From positions 193,335-257,334 of the forward strand of contig OZ220480.1 in assembly GCA_965116025.1 (NCBI GenBank): a stretch of DNA of 64,000 nt, in the 5' to 3' direction. Below the pieces are notes generated by a model that worked only from the letters and a program-made list of their open reading frames with translations, did no database searches and was not told the origin of the DNA. Shown in pieces: positions 22,730 to 33,033 of this stretch (position 1 is its first letter; every line of letters starts with the position of its first letter). This stretch comes from an uncultured candidatus Porisulfidus sp. (GTDB taxonomy: Bacteria > Pseudomonadota > Gammaproteobacteria > Poriferisulfidales > Poriferisulfidaceae). The translations under genes and the position numbers were made by a program.

Positions 22730-23334
22730 TCCGAGCCGGGAATCTCGAGCCCGGCATCCTGAAGCAACTCGATCAGGCGGATCATCGGCAACCCAATCAG
22801 AGCGGTCGGGTCGTCGCCTATGATGTGATCCGTGAGGCTGGCTCCCAGTCCCTCGGATCTGAAACTCGCGGTGCAGTTGTATGGCCTCTCGCTTCGCAGG
22901 TAACGCTTGATTACGTCCTCGCTCAATTCCTTGTAACGTACCGTGTGGCGGGACTCGGAGTAGCGGCATACGCCGGCGCTGGTGTCCAGAAGGCATAGAC
23001 CGGTCAGGAAAGCCACCTCCTGCCCGCTGAGCTGGCGTAGTTGCTCCACGGCCGCGCCATGCGTTCCCGGCTTGCCCAGCAACTTCCCGCTTAGCTCCGC
23101 GCACTGGTCGCTACTGATTATCAGGGAATCCGGGTGTCGGACCCCAACCTCCGCGGCCTTCTCATGGGCGAGCCGTCGCACGTAGTCCGAAACCCTCTCG
23201 CCTAGCCGCGGGGTCTCGTCGATATCGGGCGCGTCCACCGTGAAGTCTAGGCGCAAGCGTTCAAGAAGTTCTCGACGATAAGGAGAGCTGCTACCGAGCA
23301 CGAGAGGACGCGTCGCCGCCATTTCGATCATCAT
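22726..23334 (-). CDS. maf: Maf-like nucleoside triphosphate pyrophosphatase
   Basis: LVLGSSSPYRRELLERL...VIISSDQ...GKP motif set. Start trimmed to the ATG cluster at 23334 (ORF track 23382). Confidence 0.85.
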   Translation of the reverse strand: MMIEMAATRPLVLGSSSPYRRELLERLRLDFTVDAPDIDETPRLGERVSDYVRRLAHEKAAEVGVRHPDSLIISSDQCAELSGKLLGKPGTHGAAVEQLRQLSGQEVAFLTGLCLLDTSAGVCRYSESRHTVRYKELSEDVIKRYLRSERPYNCTASFRSEGLGASLTDHIIGDDPTALIGLPMIRLIELLQDAGLEIPGSD

Positions 23335-25010
23335 GGCGAGAGACCGACAGGATTTTCGTTGGACAGCGGAGCTCGGTTCCATCGCGCGTCTCGCTTCCGG
23401 TCTGGATTCGCGATTACGTGCAAGTAGGAAGTGGCGCGGCTAAACCCGACGTAAGCGAATCGGTCTGGACTCTCTCCAGAAGGTCGGTCGAGCACCACGA
23501 CCACCGCGAGGGATTCCAGTCCCTTAAAACGAGCGATCGTCTCGGTCACGATGCCATCGGCATCATACTGGCAAAAAACAGTGTCGGATACATCCATATC
23601 GAGGAGGCGATTCCGGAGAGACGGCGTTTCGCAAAGCACGACAATATCCTGCCGTTCAAAGTTCTCGGACAATAGGCGGTCAACGACTCGGCGTACGATC
23701 TTTTCTGGTTTCTGGGAAGGCTGGAGGTCCGTCCAGCGGGGTTTCGGACCGGATGCCCCGGAAGCGAGCGTGGTCGCCCCAGTGGTAGCCGCGACTCGCT
23801 CGGCGATCGGTTGCGCGTTTCGGCAGTTCATGGACAAATCGATCATCACGAAACCTTCGGGCGTGTCCCAGTCCCTTTCCCACAGTTTTTGGTCCTCATC
23901 CGCCAAAATCAGGAACGGAGTGTCCGAACCCCTTTCGCAAAGCGTCTGGAGCGCCTCGAGCCAAAGGCTGGAAAAGTCTTGGCCCTCATCAACGATGATC
24001 GCGTCGAATCGCGCGCCCGCCCGCTCCGCCGCGTCAACGAGAATATAAGGCACTTCCTTCTCCCACCATTCCGCTTGAGGCGCGTCGGGAACCTCGACTC
24101 CGGCCTGGCGCGCCGTGGACATGCATAAGGCATGAAACGTGTGCGCCGCAACCCCCTCCAAGGAGGGGTCGTCCCCGAGTTTTTGACCAAGCAGTTTGTT
24201 GTAGCAGGTCAGCAGCACTCGATGACCCGACGCGTGAAGTTGCCTCGCTTTCTCGCAAGCGAGAATCGTTTTTCCTGTGCCAGCCCCACCGAACACGACG
24301 ACTCGCCGATTCCGGCGCATCATGTCAAGAACCCGAATCTGCTCCTCGGTCAAATTCACAAGGCGGACCTTGGCATCGTGCGCCTCATCAGACAGGGTTC
24401 GCCGAACCTGGACGGTAGGCGCCAAGGCGTTAGCGATATCTTGGACTTGACGGAAGGATAAATCCGCGGAAAGCCGCCAATGAAGAACTACATCGCGAAT
24501 GGCGGAAGGCGCGTCCGTCAAATGGCCCGCGTCCAACGCGATCGCTTTCGGGGCATCTGGACCCAACAACGGCAATTCCCGCAAGTCAGGGAACCAAACG
24601 GCATGGCACGTCGGAACGCGACGCTCGAATCGCTCCGCTATGAACCGACCCAGAGCGGCCTTGGACGCTACCGCCTGCTCAAACGGGTTTTTGATGTCGT
24701 GGACTTCCTCGTTTCGGTCCCGGGACTTCCAACGTCCGGCTTCGACGTGGACTCCTCCGCCCTTCACCTCAAGCACGACGATCCCATGCGACCGATGAAT
24801 CAGGACAAAATCCGCTTCTCCGTCGCCGGTCCGTCGCCCGCGCGGGCCCTGCCAAGCGACGGAGTGAAGCACCGTCCAATCATCGGATAGCGTAGACAGC
24901 GCGTCGTAGACCTTCCGTTCCGAATCGGCATCGACTCCGACTGTGGGGCAGGCGAATGTGATGGCCATGACCGTGGCGTTTCCGTTCGACTCCGGCTCAC
25001 CCGAAGTCAA
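23331..25010 (-). CDS. NERD-domain nuclease fused to a UvrD-like SF1 helicase
   Basis: N-terminal NERD signature (GEADFVLIHRSHGIVVLEVKGG), Walker A VVFGGAGTGKT, Walker B IIVDEGQDF, and a C-terminal UvrD_C-like FKGLESLAVVVV. Confidence 0.8.
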   Translation of the reverse strand: MTSGEPESNGNATVMAITFACPTVGVDADSERKVYDALSTLSDDWTVLHSVAWQGPRGRRTGDGEADFVLIHRSHGIVVLEVKGGGVHVEAGRWKSRDRNEEVHDIKNPFEQAVASKAALGRFIAERFERRVPTCHAVWFPDLRELPLLGPDAPKAIALDAGHLTDAPSAIRDVVLHWRLSADLSFRQVQDIANALAPTVQVRRTLSDEAHDAKVRLVNLTEEQIRVLDMMRRNRRVVVFGGAGTGKTILACEKARQLHASGHRVLLTCYNKLLGQKLGDDPSLEGVAAHTFHALCMSTARQAGVEVPDAPQAEWWEKEVPYILVDAAERAGARFDAIIVDEGQDFSSLWLEALQTLCERGSDTPFLILADEDQKLWERDWDTPEGFVMIDLSMNCRNAQPIAERVAATTGATTLASGASGPKPRWTDLQPSQKPEKIVRRVVDRLLSENFERQDIVVLCETPSLRNRLLDMDVSDTVFCQYDADGIVTETIARFKGLESLAVVVVLDRPSGESPDRFAYVGFSRATSYLHVIANPDRKRDARWNRAPLSNENPVGLSP

Positions 25011-25438: not shown

Positions 25439-27268
25439 TTGGCCCGAGCACGGGATTCCGTAGCAATCTCATTTCTAATCCCATTGACGCTGCTGGCGGC
25501 GTCGCTGTCGGCGCTGTCGCTGTCGGCGCGGGCGGAGACGATCAACCTGTACGGGTGGCAGAACCACTCGTGGGAGTTCGTGGACATCGACGGCGGGCGC
25601 AGCTTCGACCGCATTCAGTCGAACGCCGGGAACATCGGCTTCTCGGCCAGCGTGGACACCGGCATGAGCGACATAAAGGTGAACCTGCAGTGCGAGCAGT
25701 TCACCTACTACAACCACTTCGCCGGCGGCACCGGCTGGTGCAACCGCAACTCCAAGATCGGGCTGGCGCATCCGATGGCCGGCGAGATCATGTTCGCCAC
25801 CTGGCTGCTGCCGTACAACGAGGGCGTGGCCCAATGGGTGGACCCGTTCTACGACGCCGGGGCCGACTCGCACACCAGCATCATGGGCTCGGTCGGGGCC
25901 AACACCATCTTCTACAACACCGGCGACTTCGACCAGCAGGCGTCGGCGTCCAATCCTGGCACTGGCTTCTCCGGCAACGAGTTCAACTACGCCGGGGGCG
26001 GCTACGACACCGGCTTCAACCGGCGCCAGGAGAACATCATCCAGTACTGGTCGCCGAACTGGAACGGCTTCGTGTTCCGCTTCGCCTGGACGGCCGGCAA
26101 TCGCGACGAGACCCACGCGCTCAAGGACGCCAAAGGTAATTACGCGGCCGGCCCCAAGATCGACCCGGTGATCCGCTCGAGCAGCCTGGCGTACACGAAC
26201 GGCCCGCTGTGGCTGGCGGCGACCTGGCAGGACCACGAGGACTGGACGGCGGTCTCGGTCGGGGAGATGGAGAGCTCGGACGCGGAGAGCTTCCGTCTGG
26301 CCGGGCGCTACATCATGGACCTGGGCGACGGCATGAGCGTTCAATTGTCCGCCATGTGGGAGACCTTGGAGTACGAGTTCCACGGCGTGACCACCATCGA
26401 TAAGGCCATGAAGGCGTTCGGGTATGGGAATTTCATGGATTCTTACGAGTTGAGCGTCACGGATGCGGAGATAATGAAGAAGAAGACCCAAGGGCTGGCG
26501 CTCGATATCTTGACGGATGAGAAGGGCATGCTGATTCCTATGGGGGACACGGCGCGGGGTTTATATGGGGAGCAGGTTAAAACCACTATGAGCCTGTACA
26601 CCGCATACATGGGTGAGATAGACACCGTAACCTCCACCAGCTTGAACTTGGTCGCTGAACGCAGAACTGTGGTCGACTGGAACGACTATTACAAAGAGGC
26701 GCCTGATAATCCTGTTAAAGTCAGCACTACCGCCATGCGAACCGGGTCCCAAAATGTCATGCTTTTCACGACCATGCTGAGCACGACTACGCTGAACGCG
26801 GCCAAAACGGCCGCGGAGGAGGCCAAAAAGAAGGATATGGATGATCGAACGGGCGAGGACAAATCGAAAATCAAGTTCTATGACGACCTGGTCTCGATGG
26901 CGAAATCCCGAGCCCGCGACGAGAAGAGCATGGGCGGGAACGTGAAGATCGAGCGAGACGCCTGGATGGTGTCGGGCAAGATCAAGTTCGGCGGCCCGCT
27001 GGACTTCCGCTTCTCCTACATGGACGCCGACGACCTGGAACTGTCGTGCAACTACTGCATGGGAGACTGGGACGAGACGGCGGCGGACGCCTGGAACGTC
27101 GGGGTGTTCTACACGATGCCGGCGGGGACCGAGCTGCGGCTGACGTATTCGGAAGTCAACAACGACGACAACGGGACCTACGGGCAGGGCATCTCGGGGA
27201 CTGGCTTGGGAGTGGCTGGCGCGGAGATCGAGATGTTCGCGCTGGGGATCGTGCACTGGTTCGACTGA
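25439..27268 (+). CDS. outer-membrane porin paralog P3
   Basis: 609-aa ORF. Start is ambiguous (TTG 25439 or TTG 25484 = MTLLAASLSALSLSARA/ETINLYGW). Signal type S2, patch type B, cassette V1 (26393-26938) nearly identical to the P1 cassette. Confidence 0.85.
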   Translation: MARARDSVAISFLIPLTLLAASLSALSLSARAETINLYGWQNHSWEFVDIDGGRSFDRIQSNAGNIGFSASVDTGMSDIKVNLQCEQFTYYNHFAGGTGWCNRNSKIGLAHPMAGEIMFATWLLPYNEGVAQWVDPFYDAGADSHTSIMGSVGANTIFYNTGDFDQQASASNPGTGFSGNEFNYAGGGYDTGFNRRQENIIQYWSPNWNGFVFRFAWTAGNRDETHALKDAKGNYAAGPKIDPVIRSSSLAYTNGPLWLAATWQDHEDWTAVSVGEMESSDAESFRLAGRYIMDLGDGMSVQLSAMWETLEYEFHGVTTIDKAMKAFGYGNFMDSYELSVTDAEIMKKKTQGLALDILTDEKGMLIPMGDTARGLYGEQVKTTMSLYTAYMGEIDTVTSTSLNLVAERRTVVDWNDYYKEAPDNPVKVSTTAMRTGSQNVMLFTTMLSTTTLNAAKTAAEEAKKKDMDDRTGEDKSKIKFYDDLVSMAKSRARDEKSMGGNVKIERDAWMVSGKIKFGGPLDFRFSYMDADDLELSCNYCMGDWDETAADAWNVGVFYTMPAGTELRLTYSEVNNDDNGTYGQGISGTGLGVAGAEIEMFALGIVHWFD

Positions 27269-27289
27269 CCCTTCGTCATCCACGAAGCG

Positions 27290-27318
27290 AGCGGGCGCCC
27301 TCGGGCGCCCGCTTTCTT
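27290..27318 (+). terminator. intrinsic terminator of P3
   Basis: AGCGGGCGCC-CTCG-GGCGCCCGCT hairpin followed by TTCTT. Confidence 0.8.
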
Positions 27319-27842
27319 GTGGGCTCAGGAATTCCTGACAGGTCCGCCACCAGGCGGGACCAAGACGATGGCCAGCCTCGAGACCGAGACGGACCCGCTT
27401 CGGACTACCCCCCGAATGCTTGGAGTGGCTCCACGGAAGCCGTGAGGGAAACTCCGGTTTCAGGCTTTCATCAAAGACTGTGCACCCGATATTCTTGAGA
27501 AAGGAGTTCCGGGGACCGATGGACTTGTGAAAGCCTTGGTTCACCCACCGCGCGAGCGAGACGCGTCGCGCGAAGTCCACTCGATCAAGGGCGATGGCCC
27601 TCTCGCTCTTTTCCTCCCCGAGGCGCGCGCTGACCCGAACCCTCCGGTTTCCCGCCGCCTCGCCTGGATTCCAGCTATACCGAGAATTCTCGGTCCTCCA
27701 TCACTTTGTCGTGGATTGGGTCATCCCGATCTCGCCCGCCGCGAGCGAATGGCCTTCCGAGCGTGTGGCGGGCGCGGCGAAGCCAGGTCTCGCGCCGCCG
27801 GCGCTGGCCCGACTCCCGATCTGGCCGCGAAACGCCGGATCC
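27319..27842 (+). repeat. inter-porin spacer, copy S2 (diverged centre)
   Basis: Both flanks align with S1/S3/S4. The central ~150 bp is still alignable but strongly diverged and longer. Confidence 0.7.
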
Positions 27843-27872
27843 AAAGAAAGCGGGCGCCCGAAGGCGCCCGCT
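27843..27872 (-). terminator. intrinsic terminator of P4
   Basis: Reverse complement of the family hairpin plus T-tract. Confidence 0.8.
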
Positions 27873-27894
27873 CGCTGTCGTGAATGACGAAGGG

Positions 27895-29802
27895 TCAGTC
27901 GAACCAGTGCACGATCCCCAGCGCGAACATCTCGATCTCCGCCCCCGGCGTCCCCAGGCCAGTCCCCGAGATGCCCTGCCCGTAGGTCCCGTTGTCGTCG
28001 TTGTTGACTTCCGAATACGTCAGCCGCAGCTCGGTCCCCGCCGGCATCGTGTAGAACACCCCGACGTTCCAGGCGTCCGCCGCCGTCTCGTCCCAGTCTC
28101 CCATGCAGTAGTTGCATGACAGCTCCAGGTCGTCGGCGTCCATGTAGGAGAAGCGGAAGTCCAGCGGGCCGCCGAACTTGATCTTGCCCGACACCATCCA
28201 GGCGTCCCGCTCGATCTTCACGCTCGACCCCATGGTCTGCTCCAGCTTGGCGGCAGCATATTTTTCCTTGCCCTCCTCGTATGCCGTCATGGCATCGTCG
28301 TAGGCTTTCTTAGCCTCGTTGTACTTCTCGTCATATGGCCTCATGGCCTCCTCCTTGACCTTCGCCACGTATTCCTTGTACCAGTCAGCGCCTGTTTTGT
28401 CGCCCGAATATTTCGTGGTCGATGTCTTTAAAGTATTCAGTGTCGTGGAGCTCAGTTTGGTGGTAACGAGCGTTCGCAGCGCCTGATCCGTTCCTATAGT
28501 GTTAAGTCTATAGTATTGAACCAGCTTTCTCCGATGTACGAGGCCAGAACCCCATTGCGCTAGCTCTGTGTGGAAGCTGCCTTGGAGAGTACTTAATTCC
28601 TTGGGCACCGCGATATTACTGAGGCTTGATGTCGCGCTCTTGCTATCCACTGGAATGGTCCGCCAGTACCCGCTCTCGTCAAGCAACATCTCCATCGCAA
28701 GCCCTTGGGTCATCTGCGCGTCGATCTCGGCTTGGGTGGCCATCCCTCGTTCAGGCTTCGTCGTGGTCGGCTTCGTCGGCATGTCCATGTCGGCGGGGGC
28801 CATGACCTTCATGTCGTAGTAGGTCTTCTCGAAATGGTTGATGTTGGGATCGGTGCCGCCGTACCCGAACGCCTTCATGGCCTTGTTAATGTCGGTCACG
28901 CCGTGGAACTCGTACTCCAAAGTCTCCCACATGGCCGACAATTGAACGCTCATGCCGTCGCCCAGGTCCATGATGTAGCGCCCGGCCAGACGGAAGCTCT
29001 CCGCGTCCGAGCTCTCCATCTCCCCGACCGAGACCGCCGTCCAGTCCTCGTGGTCCTGCCAGGTCGCCGCCAGCCACAGCGGGCCGTTCGTGTACGCCAG
29101 GCTGCTCGAGCGGATCACCGGGTCGATCTTGGGGCCGGCCGCGTACTTGCCCTCGGCGTTCTTGAGCGCGTGGGTCTCGTCGCGATTGCCGGCCGTCCAG
29201 GCGAAGCGGAACACGAAGCCGTTCCAGTTCGGCGACCAGTACTGGATGATGTTCTCCTGGCGCCGGTTGAAGCCGGTGTCGTAGCCGCCCCCGGCGTAGT
29301 TGAACTCGTTGCCGGAGAAGCCAGTGCCAGGATTGGACGCCGACGCCTGCTGGTCGAAGTCGCCGGTGTTGTAGAAGATGGTGTTGGCCCCGACCGAGCC
29401 CATGATGCTGGTGTGCGAGTCGGCCCCGGCGTCGTAGAACGGGTCCACCCACTGGGCCACGCCCTCGTTGTACGGCAGCAGCCAGGTGGCGAACATGATC
29501 TCGCCGGCCATCGGGTGCGCCAGCCCGATCTTGGAGTTGCGGTTGCACCAGCCGGTGCCGCCGGCGAAGTGGTTGTAGTAGGTGAACTGCTCGCACTGCA
29601 GGTTCACCTTTATGTCGCTCATGCCGGTGTCCACGCTGGCCGAGAAGCCGATGTTCCCGGCGTTCGACTGGATGCGGTCGAAGCTGCGCCCGCCGTCGAT
29701 GTCCACGAACTCCCACGAGTGGTTCTGCCACCCGTACAGGTTGATCGTCTCCGCCCGCGCCGACAGCGACAGCGCCGACAGCGACGCCGCCAGCAGCGTC
29801 AA
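27895..29802 (-). CDS. outer-membrane porin paralog P4
   Basis: Family homology begins at 29817. The first plausible start is TTG 29802 (MTLLAAS...). The track ORF extends to 29973 through non-homologous sequence. Signal S2, patch B, cassette V2' (28223-28893). Confidence 0.82.
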   Translation of the reverse strand: MTLLAASLSALSLSARAETINLYGWQNHSWEFVDIDGGRSFDRIQSNAGNIGFSASVDTGMSDIKVNLQCEQFTYYNHFAGGTGWCNRNSKIGLAHPMAGEIMFATWLLPYNEGVAQWVDPFYDAGADSHTSIMGSVGANTIFYNTGDFDQQASASNPGTGFSGNEFNYAGGGYDTGFNRRQENIIQYWSPNWNGFVFRFAWTAGNRDETHALKNAEGKYAAGPKIDPVIRSSSLAYTNGPLWLAATWQDHEDWTAVSVGEMESSDAESFRLAGRYIMDLGDGMSVQLSAMWETLEYEFHGVTDINKAMKAFGYGGTDPNINHFEKTYYDMKVMAPADMDMPTKPTTTKPERGMATQAEIDAQMTQGLAMEMLLDESGYWRTIPVDSKSATSSLSNIAVPKELSTLQGSFHTELAQWGSGLVHRRKLVQYYRLNTIGTDQALRTLVTTKLSSTTLNTLKTSTTKYSGDKTGADWYKEYVAKVKEEAMRPYDEKYNEAKKAYDDAMTAYEEGKEKYAAAKLEQTMGSSVKIERDAWMVSGKIKFGGPLDFRFSYMDADDLELSCNYCMGDWDETAADAWNVGVFYTMPAGTELRLTYSEVNNDDNGTYGQGISGTGLGTPGAEIEMFALGIVHWFD

Positions 29803-29975
29803 TGGGATTAGAAATGGTATCTCCTCGAAATCCCAATCCCACCGAGAACCATGATGACCATGCGCCCCAAGACTCCGCCCAAGAGACCGTGGAAACCGAA
29901 ATCCACCGATCCCCGGAGCATGGGAAACTGAGACGAAACCATGGCTGATTCTGAAACTTCGGGATGACTCCAACT

Positions 29976-31311
29976 CACTAGTGTCCCAACGTTTCAGTTC
30001 GATTGGTCTGCAATAGATTGTTTATAATGAGTTTTTTCGCGATTTCCAGCGTTGTCGATTTCAATCTTTGGCCGGAGCCCGTGGCGGACCCTGCCCGGCG
30101 CGAGCTGTCGCGAGGGGGGTCAAGCCAATGCATTCCGGAAAACTCGTGTTCGCTCAAGTGATGGATCATCTTCCCTGGCCCAGTTTCCAGCGGCGCGTCG
30201 AGCGCCACGGCGGACATCACAAGGTCAAGTCCTTCAGTTGCGGCGATCAGTATCGCTGCATGGCTTTCGCGCAACTGACCTATCGGTCCTCCCTGCGCGA
30301 CGTCGAGGCCTGCCTGCGCGCGCAGTCGAGCAAGCTGTACCACATGGGCATCCGCGGGGGCGTGGCGAGGAACACGCTGGCGAACGCCAACGCGACCCGG
30401 GACTGGAGGATCCATGCCGATTTCGCGCGCGACCTGATTGACGAGGCGCGGCGTCTTCTTGGCGAGGAGAGCCACGGACTGGATCTGGACCGCACCGTCT
30501 ACGCGTTGGACTCGTCCACCATCGACCTGTGCCTGTCGCTGTTTCCGTGGGCGCCGTTTCGCGCGACCAAGGCGGCCGTCAAGATGCATACGCTGCTCGA
30601 CCTGCGCGGAAACATCCCGACTTTTCTGCATGTTACGGACGGAAAGGTTCACGACGTGAACATTCTGGACCTGCTGGTTCCAGAGCCCGGGGCCTTCTAC
30701 GTCATGGATCGGGCCTACCTCGATTTCTCCCGCTTGCACGCGCTGCGCCTGCATGGGGCCCACTTCGTGTTGCGCTCCAAGTCCAACATCAAACTCCGGC
30801 GCTTGTCTTCCCGCGCGGCCGACCGCGACGCGGGCGTTCTTCGCGACCAGGTGGTCCGGGCCAGCGGCGCCACCACCGCGAGCGCCTATCCCGACCGGCT
30901 TCGGCGCGTCAAGCATCGAGACCGAGAGCGGGAGAAGACCCTCGTGTTCCTGACCAACGACTTCACGCTTCCGGCGCGGACGATCGCCGAGCTGTATCGG
31001 GCGCGCTGGCGCGTGGAGCTGTTCTTCAAATGGATCAAGCGGCATCTGAGGATCCAGTCGTTCTTCGGCACGACGGAGAACGCCGTGAAGACCCAGATCT
31101 GGATCGCGATCTCGGTTTACGTGCTGGTGGCGATCCTTCGGAAGCGGTTGCGGCTGGAGACGGAGCTGCGCGCTATTCTCCAGATTTTGAGCCTCACTCT
31201 TTTTGAGAAAGTTCCTTTATATCAATTACTTGCGAAGAATGAACCCCAAATCGAACTGCCGGGGGGCCCTAAACAGTTGAATTTGCTACCATTAACGTTG
31301 GGACACTAGTG
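29976..31311 (+). mobile_element. IS4-family insertion sequence, intact (1336 bp)
   Basis: Perfect 18-bp terminal inverted repeats CACTAGTGTCCCAACGTT (29976-29993) / AACGTTGGGACACTAGTG (31294-31311). Flanked by a 9-bp direct repeat ACTCCAACT (29967-29975 and 31312-31320). Confidence 0.88.
30128..31309 (+). CDS. IS4-family DDE transposase
   Basis: MHSGKLVFAQVMDHLPWPSFQRRVERHGG... (DUF4372-like N-terminus) plus a DDE core (YALDSSTIDL, YVMDRAY, YRARWRVELFFKWIK). The ORF track start 30068 is probably upstream of the true ATG. Confidence 0.85.
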   Translation: MHSGKLVFAQVMDHLPWPSFQRRVERHGGHHKVKSFSCGDQYRCMAFAQLTYRSSLRDVEACLRAQSSKLYHMGIRGGVARNTLANANATRDWRIHADFARDLIDEARRLLGEESHGLDLDRTVYALDSSTIDLCLSLFPWAPFRATKAAVKMHTLLDLRGNIPTFLHVTDGKVHDVNILDLLVPEPGAFYVMDRAYLDFSRLHALRLHGAHFVLRSKSNIKLRRLSSRAADRDAGVLRDQVVRASGATTASAYPDRLRRVKHRDREREKTLVFLTNDFTLPARTIAELYRARWRVELFFKWIKRHLRIQSFFGTTENAVKTQIWIAISVYVLVAILRKRLRLETELRAILQILSLTLFEKVPLYQLLAKNEPQIELPGGPKQLNLLPLTLGH

Positions 31312-31473: not shown

Positions 31474-33033
31474 TTATTTGACTGGCACGGGAGACGTGAA
31501 CACGAATCGAGCCAAGCCATCGCCATAGCGGACCGCGCACCGTGATGGCAAAGACTGCAACATGTTGGTGTCCACAAGGTAGCGCTCTGACTGACGCAGG
31601 CCACGAATGTTTCGCTCGCGCTCGGCGAGGACCGCGTTGGCCTCGAAATCGCGCATCTCGTCATCGATTAGGATGCTGCCGCTCATGCGGGCCAGCCATA
31701 ATGCCGTGTCTGGATCGTTGACCCGGTAGGCGAATTTCAGGCCGCAGTTCTCGGTTACTGAAGATATCACCTGTTCCGGGTCCAGATCGTCGGGAACGTT
31801 GCGCAAGTCGTTGACCGTCTGATGCGCCAGCACTAGGTGCGCCCGTTTGTCCCGGATAGAGGCGAGCGCCTCCAGTAGCGGAGCGCTGATCAGATAGCGG
31901 AGCTCATCCAGAAACATGCAGACTTGGCGGGATCTTTCGCGGGCGCGGCGCTCGCAACTCTGGATCACCGACAGCACGAACATCTTCTGAAGCTTGAGAA
32001 TACGGGAGTGGCGTGGGGAGCCGAGCACGTAGATCACCGCGCCCTCCTCAATCGCTCGCGCGACATCCAACCCCTCCTCGGCCCGAGCCGCGGGGGTCGC
32101 CGCGATCTCTTCCATATCATCAATGAACTTCGTGGCCTTGCGCGCAACGGTCTCGCTTCGGAACGTCGCCAAAAGATTCGGCAGGGACTCGCCGTCATGC
32201 AACCGCGCGAATTCTCGTGCGGCGCGACGATCATTGAGACGATAGAAATCCGCCTCGGAGCCTCGCTCTCCGAGGCCGAAGCTTGCCACCAGGAGCTCCT
32301 CAATCTCATCGGAACTCTTTCCGCGCAGGGGATTCCATCGCGCCTCCTCGCCCATGAGATCCAAGCGATAGAAGGGTTTGCCGGCCTCGCGGGCCGCACG
32401 CTCCAAGACTCGTGGAGCGTACTCGTCACGCTTAGGGTCCACCACCACGACCGCCTCGCCTTGCCGCGCGGCCTGGGTTAGCAGAATTCCTGCCAAGACA
32501 CCTTTTCCACTTCCGGTCATCCCGATAATATCGATATGGGACCGCCTCCATAGATTCTGATCCACGTGCACGGGATCGCCGTTCGGATCCAGCCCTAAAA
32601 ATAGTCGGTCATCAGACTGGCAGAACGGCAAGGGGTCATACTCGTTCCGGGCCTTCGGCAGGAAGTCTCCGATGTCGCGGATATCGGTCCGCGCGTCCCG
32701 GGCCAGTGGGCTACGTTTCATCCATCGCGCGCGCCACCGCTCGAGCGCGCCGCTTCCTCGACGCGCCATGAGGATGGCCAGCGCGGTGCCAATGAGAAAC
32801 TGTCCCATGAAGAGCGGGACATGCCAGCCCGGATGGTTTGTCCCTATCGCATGCGGCACCAGCACCAAGAGCGCCGTAAAGACGGACAAGGTCAGCATCA
32901 GCAAGCCAAGCGCCCTCGGCGCTTGTAGCAGACCAAGCGTCATGAGAATGCCGCCGGGCAACCCAAGCCAAGGCCAACTCCATCCGTAGAACATGTTTTC
33001 GGACAGGCCGCCGACGATCTCCCAAAACCCCAT
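31474..33033 (-). CDS. type IV secretion coupling protein-like ATPase (TraD/VirD4/TrwB family), orphan
   Basis: N-terminal TM helices, Walker [12 protein letters not shown], Walker B-like [11 protein letters not shown]. No other conjugation genes in the window. Confidence 0.6.

Follow-up and report, generated by a model that had tools for sequence, protein, structure and literature searches.

A mosaic porin family with a candidate RNA-guided inversion switch in a sponge-associated gammaproteobacterium

Surface-gene mosaics are well known in pathogens. Anaplasma msp2, Neisseria pilE/pilS and Treponema tprK each combine one or a few expression sites with promoterless donors, and segmental conversion produces mosaics in which a central hypervariable region lies between conserved flanks; TprK is itself a predicted porin-like barrel with variable loops. 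The S-layer (sap) genes of Campylobacter fetus are full-length homologs with a conserved 5′ region, and a single promoter sits on an invertible segment between opposed homologs. Simple and nested inversions bring different sap bodies to this promoter, in a RecA-dependent process that proceeds via the conserved 5′ regions without a dedicated recombinase or guide RNA. Here we describe a family of eight paralogous porin genes (P1–P8), arranged as four convergent pairs (units 1–4), in a 64-kb stretch of contig OZ220480.1 (hereafter the window) from Candidatus Porisulfidus, a sponge-associated, sulfur-oxidising gammaproteobacterium, together with a recombinase gene and a structured non-coding RNA (ncRNA) located between units 3 and 4. 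We propose that these elements make up a surface-variation system with two layers, gene-conversion mosaics and a guide-RNA-directed inversion switch, a reading to which the sequence data lead us to assign a probability of about 0.6. A preliminary description of the locus had dealt with the mosaic structure of unit 2; it missed the startless state of seven of the eight copies, the invariant 9-bp site at their 5′ ends, and the recombinase with its guide-like RNA.

The mosaic porin family is by itself of a known kind, its closest precedents being Brucella omp2a/omp2b, C. fetus sap and the msp2, pilS and tprK families. As in sap, a promoter-bearing segment lies between opposed homologs, although the sap products are S-layer proteins and not porins. 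Compared with the donors of msp2, pilS and tprK, those described here are near full-length, short of only three codons and the leader, and stand in convergent pairs; moreover, the hosts of those families are vertebrate pathogens, whereas the present case is a sponge symbiont, which suggests comparable host or phage pressure on mutualists. The Brucella porin paralogs omp2a and omp2b lie within 1 kb of each other in opposite orientations, and only one of them is expressed; segmental conversion between the two generates chimeric porins, with variation concentrated in loops L3, L5 and L8 at the surface (PMC7050475). The present units likewise consist of inverted porin pairs less than 1 kb apart (spacers of 588–626 nt) with conversion tracts. 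They differ in number (four pairs in 64 kb, with at least ten porin copies in the genome), in a predicted helical L6 cassette of 150–250 aa, in the lack of a start codon from the putatively silent copies, and in the recombinase and RNA that adjoin the expression copy.

As for the proposed switch, its nearest known counterpart is Moraxella Piv in terms of protein and the IS621 bridge RNAs in terms of RNA. Piv is a DEDD recombinase of the IS110/IS492 lineage that needs a G--P----SG motif for inversion (PMC11187229). Like Piv (tfpQ/tfpI), the recombinase described here appears to be a domesticated DEDD enzyme with putative crossover sites inside the coding sequence of a variable surface protein; unlike Piv, which represents a short branch of 315–330 aa and switches two pilin 3′ segments, it has 385–391 aa and is associated with a dispersed porin family. 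No guide RNA for Piv was found in the literature searched. The target loop of the IS621 bridge RNA has a left and a right target guide (LTG/RTG) whose matches overlap at a CT core (PMC11208160), and the seekRNAs of IS1111/IS110 share this sense/antisense layout (PMC11187229). As in these elements, a structured ncRNA lies next to the DEDD recombinase gene, and its scaffold is homologous to a genuine IS110 ncRNA; in contrast to them, the present recombinase is not mobile (single copy, syntenic, without insertion sequence (IS) ends), its apparent target is a host gene family, and only one loop of its RNA has a recognisable partner. We found no guide-RNA recombinase aimed at a gene family's own 5′ site in the literature searched, and to our knowledge bridge and seek RNAs have so far been described only in mobile IS110/IS1111 elements and as tools for engineering. 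Host use of an RNA-guided recombinase on its own genes, if true, would give bridge RNAs a cellular function, would link them to the long-unexplained Piv invertase class, and would amount to an RNA-programmed shufflon for the sponge-symbiont cell surface, operating atop homologous gene conversion. The locus also offers a compact, naturally fixed pair of target and guide that is directly testable in E. coli.

Mosaic structure of the porin copies

In a profile search P1–P8 scored 65–67.5 bits with Pfam Porin_4, for which the cut-off is 27. An AlphaFold model of P6 (mean predicted local distance difference test score 75; 82 homologs used) contained 16 strands, and its best PDB matches in Foldseek were Omp32, PorB, OmpF and chitoporin, with target-normalised template modelling scores of 0.6–0.77 and a probability of 1.0 for the first three. 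The profile match and the 16-stranded β-barrel model indicate that P1–P8 are general Gram-negative porins of the OmpF/PorB type. In translation, the N-terminus of P6 reads MKK, a hydrophobic stretch and then ARA-E, while the porin C-terminus reads ...HWFD, with Phe penultimate and not terminal. The window proteins derive from a single 2,018,984-bp contig; two further porin copies are known outside the window, one with MKK and one without.

The copies share a 5′ module of ~0.95 kb and a 3′ module of ~0.4 kb, and their differences cluster in the signal region, the two patches, the cassette and the L8 codons, which form discrete blocks separated by near-identity. Translation reproduced the block types of the preliminary description. 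Type A patches (ASASGPATGFSGAEFNYAGAGYDTG plus DET(N/M)APTGGGKIDPV) occur in P1, P2, P5 and P7, and type B patches (ASASNPGTGFSGNEFNYAGGGYDTG plus DETHALK(D/N)A(K/E)G(N/K)YAAGPKIDPV, 7 aa longer) in P3, P4, P6 and P8. Of the two signal types, type 1 (LALLAAGLSALALPARA) is confined to P1 and P2, from which P3–P8 differ; the 3′ module has GLGTPGAE in P1, P2, P4, P5 and P8, GLGVAGAE in P3 and P6, and GLGTAGAE in P7. The assignments for P2 (4116–5956, − strand) are correct, but its protein exists only after repair of a frameshift at a G6 homopolymer (GATACGGGGGGTCC; 4765–4780, − strand, the run lying near 4770), where one added G restores the full-length frame; slippage, a sequencing error or the decay of a silent copy could each account for it. 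Loops were placed by counting strands from the periplasmic N-terminus on the DSSP string of the P6 model. On this count patch 1 (residues ~161–185) would correspond to L3, patch 2 (residues 216–236) to L4, the cassette (residues 309–527), predicted to be mostly helical with one helix spanning residues 486–523, to L6, and the GLGxxGAE variant (residues 615–622) to L8, so that all variable pieces would lie on the predicted extracellular side.

The interval 25470–29817, where the preliminary description had placed a unit carrying the cassettes of unit 1 on a different 5′ type, corresponds exactly to unit 2, which consists of P3 (25469–27268, +) and P4 (27895–29817, −). P3 is identical to P6 and P8 over alignment columns 0–893, that is, through its 5′ module to ~26362; beyond a breakpoint at 26362–26393, its cassette and most of its 3′ module (columns 924 to ~1815) are those of P1 (1749–3527, +; signal type 1, A patches, cassette V1), and its GLGVAGAE codons at the 3′ end (27211–27220) are again those of P6. 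P4 is P7-like over columns 0–392 (the first ~390 nt), continues with B patches that have private changes, is then P2-like from 29130 to ~28766, ~45 codons into the cassette, and beyond that point has a unique cassette core. As had been claimed, the P1 and P3 cassettes are nearly identical (4 nt differences in 573), and those of P2 and P4 share their early part (4926–5290 versus 28766–29130; 98.6% identity) and then diverge. The spacers of units 1 and 2 are only ~88% identical; the shared P1/P3 cassette is thus the result of a recent transfer of ~0.6–0.9 kb and does not reflect the age of the units. Unit 2 is therefore a mosaic in which unit 1-related cassettes stand on 5′ modules copied from the P6/P7/P8 lineage.

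A formal recombination test and a comparison of segments, both proposed earlier as checks on the mosaic, support it. The pairwise homoplasy index (PHI) of the 5′ module was 0.065, against 0.123 in permuted data (p=0.0005), and the concatenated 5′ and 3′ modules gave the same p value. The 3′ module alone was not significant (p=0.28), yet 59 of its 120 site pairs were incompatible; the minimum number of recombination events was 4 for the 5′ module and 5 for the 3′ module. In a Sawyer-type run test, 13 of the 28 gene pairs reached p≤0.001; P3 and P6, for instance, were identical across 59 consecutive polymorphic sites. Distances were discordant from segment to segment: the signal region separates {P1,P2} from {P3–P8}; in columns 56–480 {P3,P6,P8} are identical and P4 is nearest to P1; the patches separate {P1,P2,P5,P7} from {P3,P4,P6,P8}; the cassette starts form the groups {P1,P3}, {P2,P4} and {P5–P8}, the cassettes of P5 (44047–45948, +) and P6 (46542–48449, −) being 91% identical; and in the 3′ module P6 is nearest to P7 and P3 to P6. 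PHI, the run test and the distance matrices thus agree that gene conversion or crossover has occurred repeatedly, with breakpoints that separate patch, cassette and 3′ module. We conclude that the loop-coding pieces, namely the L3/L4 patches, the L6 cassette and the L8 tripeptide, are moved from copy to copy by homologous recombination and gene conversion within the conserved modules. The further suggestion of exchange between inverted partners is plausible and weakly shown: signal type 1 is found only in the partners of unit 1, but the most recent tracts run between units, since P3, P6 and P8 have 5′ modules that are only 0–1 nt apart.

The spacers of the four pairs (3528–4115, 27269–27894, 45949–46541 and 53487–54084) are 85% conserved over a core of ~500 nt, uniformly oriented and themselves mosaic. 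Each spacer end has a strong GC hairpin followed by a T-run; in unit 2 the hairpin at either end is terminator-like and reads GCGGGCGCC-TTCG-GGCGCCCGC, followed by TTTCTTT. Rfam searches of the spacers, and of the 3.1-kb segment that separates P6 from P7 (51576–53486, +), gave no match.

Start signals and the boundary site

Homology common to all copies starts at CCATTTCTAAT, which corresponds to codon 4. Among the eight window copies only P6 has AGGAG, seven bases and then ATG AAA AAA ahead of this site, giving a Lys-Lys n-region (MKKPFLIPL...), and it is taken as the expression copy. The seven startless copies have no Shine-Dalgarno (SD) sequence, ATG or charged n-region: P2, P5 and P7 have an in-frame TGA five codons upstream, while P1, P3, P4 and P8 (54085–56013, −) are preceded by unrelated sequence with no in-frame ATG. 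The leader of P6 (48450–48720, −), termed E-type, contains a GTTGTnAAAAAACAAC palindrome, a TTGACA box, a TATAAT-like box, a hairpin in the 5′ untranslated region (UTR) and the SD sequence. We considered whether P8 has a decayed E-type leader, but the similarity is weak and covers ~11+16 nt only. In related Candidatus Porisulfidus genomes one copy has TAGGAGTCCTAAAAAATGAAAAAACCATTTCTAAT and the rest lack a start, their (CC)ATTTCTAAT being preceded by a stop, by a frame-shifted ATG with A5, or by unrelated sequence; the E-type leader of the started copy is kept across the genus, with its palindrome, TTGACA box, −10-like box, 5′ UTR hairpin and SD sequence. Startless copies at L004 ~6877 and L020 ~10058 have an out-of-frame ATG with A5 behind it, compared with ATG and A6 in the started copy; this difference could be a homopolymer on/off switch or plain decay.

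Startless copies are under purifying selection. The 5′ modules of P5 and P7 differ by 14 synonymous changes and 1 non-synonymous change, the 3′ modules have synonymous divergence (dS) of 0.09–0.15 with non-synonymous divergence (dN) near 0, and dN in the conserved modules is near 0 even between two startless copies; the cassettes have dN/dS of 0.4–0.9. Such constraint fits silent stores that would be used periodically. The locus resembles an expression site with silent cassettes in that, to judge by sequence, one copy has promoter and start, and in that the copies are mosaics formed by segmental recombination. We propose, with moderate confidence, that the single leader drives whichever body is joined to it and that the other copies serve as stores.

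The boundary site CCATTTCTAAT is located at 1749–1759, 25469–25479, 44047–44057 and 51576–51586 on the + strand (P1, P3, P5 and P7) and at 5946–5956, 29807–29817, 48430–48440 and 56003–56013 on the − strand (P2, P4, P6 and P8). With one mismatch allowed, it occurred in the window solely at these eight gene starts, against 0.58 expected. Across 644 kb (the window plus the loci from other genomes), 62 of 70 occurrences of the 9-mer were at porin starts, and at least five of the remaining eight were porin 5′ remnants or lay at contig ends. Of 63 anchored sequences from the window and loci, 53 had ATTTCTAAT; four of the ten without it are the copies of L016, which have CGTCCCTAAT. The eight TTTCTAAT bases were required by the search, which makes their tabulated invariance partly a matter of construction; the argument therefore rests on the recurrence of the 8-mer at nearly every copy, and not on the tabulated information content. 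The flanking A, which the search did not impose, was invariant in 53 of 53 site-bearing sequences. Two wobble bases, the T that ends TTT and the A that ends CTA, fall within TTTCTAAT; the genome has ~61% G+C, and neighbouring wobble positions vary. At L014 ~9736, a solitary CCATTTCTAAT with a signal-peptide coding fragment lies ~250 nt upstream of a started porin gene; it may be the footprint of an earlier exchange.

These observations bear on a first alternative, in which the locus is an ordinary multigene family whose eight porins are all expressed from their own promoters or alternative starts, with RecA-dependent conversion as the only process and the recombinase and RNA uninvolved. Gene callers give an open reading frame (ORF) for every copy, starting at TTG or at an internal ATG, every copy but P2 is intact and under purifying selection, and the internal breakpoints require homologous recombination regardless. 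However, seven copies lacking all three start signals, several of them behind an in-frame stop, are difficult to reconcile with this explanation, as is a split between one started and many startless copies that is kept across genomes with saturated synonymous sites. It would also leave unexplained the invariant 9-mer with its fixed wobble bases and the guide-like match in a conserved structured RNA described below. We regard this explanation as unlikely, though still a serious contender.

The recombinase and its adjacent RNA

P6 and its divergent neighbour P7 are separated by a 3.1-kb segment (48441–51575) that contains, in order, the E-type leader, the recombinase gene (49200–50357, +), a 250-nt non-coding stretch, a convergent, conserved BRCT-like gene (50609–51502, −; weak BRCT match) and the startless leader of P7, which is the 5′ region of the BRCT-like gene. 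This arrangement is kept at 73–86% nucleotide identity in other Porisulfidus genomes. The recombinase has the Pfam domains DEDD_Tnp_IS110 (PF01548) and Transposase_20 (PF02371), and its translation contains the motifs GLD, YEAG, KTDQRDA and GLVPCVYSSG, the last of which corresponds to G--P----SG. Both the profiles and the motifs thus assign it to the IS110/Piv family, with a DEDD RuvC-like domain and a C-terminal Tnp domain. A PDB sequence search with the recombinase gave no match. The recombinase and BRCT-like genes are intact in at least 12 loci, among which the recombinase has 71–82% amino acid identity, a dN/dS of 0.05–0.07 and a dS above 1.5, meaning that synonymous sites are near saturation. 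Because it is present as a single copy, with no second copy in the window or loci, is syntenic in at least 12 loci, and is bounded by inverted sites and not by direct target halves, we treat it as domesticated and do not file it as an IS.

A 214-nt bridge-RNA-like ncRNA (50379–50592, +), with a long closing stem and two arms, occupies the non-coding stretch. It is 85% conserved in 12 genomes even though synonymous sites are saturated. Its alignment supports 63 pairs, with 98.1% of cells paired, and 13 pairs show compensatory changes, against 3.4±1.3 in shuffled alignments (0 of 500 reaching this value) and 1–5 in slid controls; folded as a single sequence, the window ncRNA has a z score of −4.7. 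Many G-U pairs point to the + strand, the same as that of the recombinase. Upstream of the recombinase, no conserved RNA-like block shared with the window was found. The downstream small RNA of ISPpu9, Ssr9, was considered for comparison and set aside as a different kind of RNA.

Arm 1 of the ncRNA has an internal loop whose 5′ side, GGCAUUUCUA, is sense to CATTTCTA and whose 3′ side, CAAUUAGACA, is antisense to TCTAATTG. The window versions of these sides are AAUUUCUA and UAUUAGAC, with ATTTCTA (50421–50427, +) sense to the porin site in the manner of an LTG and ATTAGA (50484–50489, +) antisense to TCTAAT in the manner of an RTG; in the other genomes the 5′ side has CATTTCTA and the 3′ side CAATTAGAC, antisense to GTCTAATTG. 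A k-mer scan identified these two loop sides as the only ncRNA segments that match porin sites in 12 of 12 genomes. The union of both matches, ATTT-CT-AAT, is exactly the invariant 9-mer, and the overlap falls at the CT core. With a sense guide on the 5′ side and an antisense guide on the 3′ side overlapping at CT, the loop has the LTG/RTG layout of IS621 and the seekRNAs. In Salinisphaera, a genuine IS110 element whose transposase is 58% identical shares this ncRNA scaffold, but exactly these two loop positions are occupied by different letters, CCCGGGCTA and TCCTAGAC. They are therefore the programmable positions of the RNA family.

Taken together, the conserved recombinase, the RNA and the site suggest a domesticated bridge-RNA-type recombinase with its guide loop fixed on a 9-bp site at codons 4–6 of every porin, which would connect the single promoter/SD/ATG leader to stored bodies; we consider this version of the switch evenly balanced between right and wrong. 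In one relative, with a 2.63-Mb sequence, the recombinase and an ncRNA with the same guides lie between kdsA and rpmF, ~550 kb from a divergent pair of E-type and startless porins with CCATTTCTAATTGC sites. Action in trans is therefore conceivable.

A second alternative is that the recombinase is a stranded, selfish IS110 whose insertion target was the porin 5′ site, the startless copies and the inversion being by-products and no switch being maintained. That the nearest relatives outside the genus are ordinary IS110 transposases (56–62% identity), that gene and RNA lie away from porins in the relative just mentioned, and that no donor-loop partner was found would all agree with such an origin. 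A stranded element is not expected, however, to remain intact, single and syntenic under a dN/dS of ~0.05 while synonymous sites saturate, to have an RNA conserved well above neutral sites, or to lie between inverted sites in the manner of an invertible segment. We consider this explanation distinctly improbable.

Inversion of the promoter-bearing segment

The arrangement was compared between genomes using block names (A, B1 and SEG) taken from locus L001. L001, L012 and L014 have the order A, E-led gene, SEG, startless gene, B1, whereas L010 and L004/L029 have the E-led gene next to B1 and the startless side towards A. These opposite arrangements indicate that the promoter-bearing segment is inverted relative to conserved flanks, and at least one inversion with endpoints at porin 5′ ends is evident from gene order in the history of the genus; the orientation data leave its catalyst unspecified. 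As in the sap locus, oppositely oriented homologs, P6 (−) and P7 (+), flank the segment that carries the E-type leader, and the two orientations are seen between genomes only. When segment orientation in other samples was sought by means of the recombinase protein, the short-read contigs stopped at the porin repeats.

In the mechanism that we propose, the ncRNA internal loop would pair with both strands of the porin site around the central CT, and recombinase and ncRNA would recombine two inverted sites (CCATTTCTAATCC), giving an inversion. We see roughly even odds that the recombinase, guided by this RNA, recombines pairs of ATTT-CT-AAT sites. Inversion of the 3.1-kb segment would move promoter, SD sequence and ATG from P6 to P7, inversion of a convergent pair would place the other body beside a given leader, and nested inversions could bring any body to the expression leader. 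Each unit, as a convergent pair with outward sites, would then be an invertible module, and inversion at the outer sites would explain the convergent-pair arrangement. Pairs of sites in direct repeat would give deletions, a possible reason for the unit design.

Several points weigh against a switch of this kind. The second arm of the ncRNA gave only scattered chance matches, and its loops vary among genomes with no consistent DNA partner; no second loop matching the element ends was found, and the canonical two-loop bridge mechanism is accordingly not demonstrated. The window guides match 7 and 6 nt (ATTTCTA and TCTAAT), less than the IS621 target, and homologous recombination between the 0.95-kb inverted 5′ modules could alone suffice for inversion. 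Exact look-ups of the predicted leader-body recombinant proteins gave no match, the strain being present in one assembly only. As for expression, the spacing of the −35 and −10 boxes of P6 is 14 nt with TATAAT as the −10 box, a σ70 scan, which proved non-discriminating, reported no site upstream of any porin copy, P6 included, and the startless copies could be weakly translated from the internal ATG (P1 and P2) or TTG (P3–P8) chosen by the gene callers. Finally, all four porin copies of genome L016 (OZ251520.1) have a start codon, reading ATG AAA AAA ACG TCC CTA ATC, and their site differs, with CGTCCCTAAT in place of CCATTTCTAAT; no recombinase or ncRNA was found within 10 kb of them, and L016 may represent a lineage that lost or changed the system.

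A last alternative, that the mosaics are assembly chimeras among near-identical repeats, could appeal to repeats that are 93–99% identical over 0.4–1 kb and to short-read assemblies of relatives that break at these repeats (contigs of ~2.7 kb), but it is highly improbable given that the source is one 2.02-Mb contig and the repeats are short relative to long reads, that every copy has private substitutions and unique flanks, and that the same architecture recurs in many independent chromosome-level assemblies.

No tyrosine or serine recombinase was found near the units; the genes around them are housekeeping genes or encode defence-like ATPases and transposases of the IS4 and DDE types. A TrwB/TraD-like DUF87 ATPase gene (31474–33033, −) lies beside the 5′ end of P4, with an IS4-type DDE transposase gene (30068–31309, +) intervening. 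In a distant relative (locus L039, 3339–5832), BRCT-like and TrwB-like genes are found between divergent started and startless porins; genes of these two kinds may be accessory genes of the system. Defence-like genes are present at unit borders: an AAA_21/AAA_15 ATPase and a DUF4276 protein are encoded beside P2 (6106–8014), and a NERD plus UvrD-like helicase region (23331–25010) adjoins P3. Together with the IS4 copy, a second DDE transposase ORF (DDE_Tnp_1; 59720–60601, −) shows the presence of several mobile elements in the region. At 61598–61736 there is a short tandem repeat of ~4 copies (period 33 nt, 89–92% identity).

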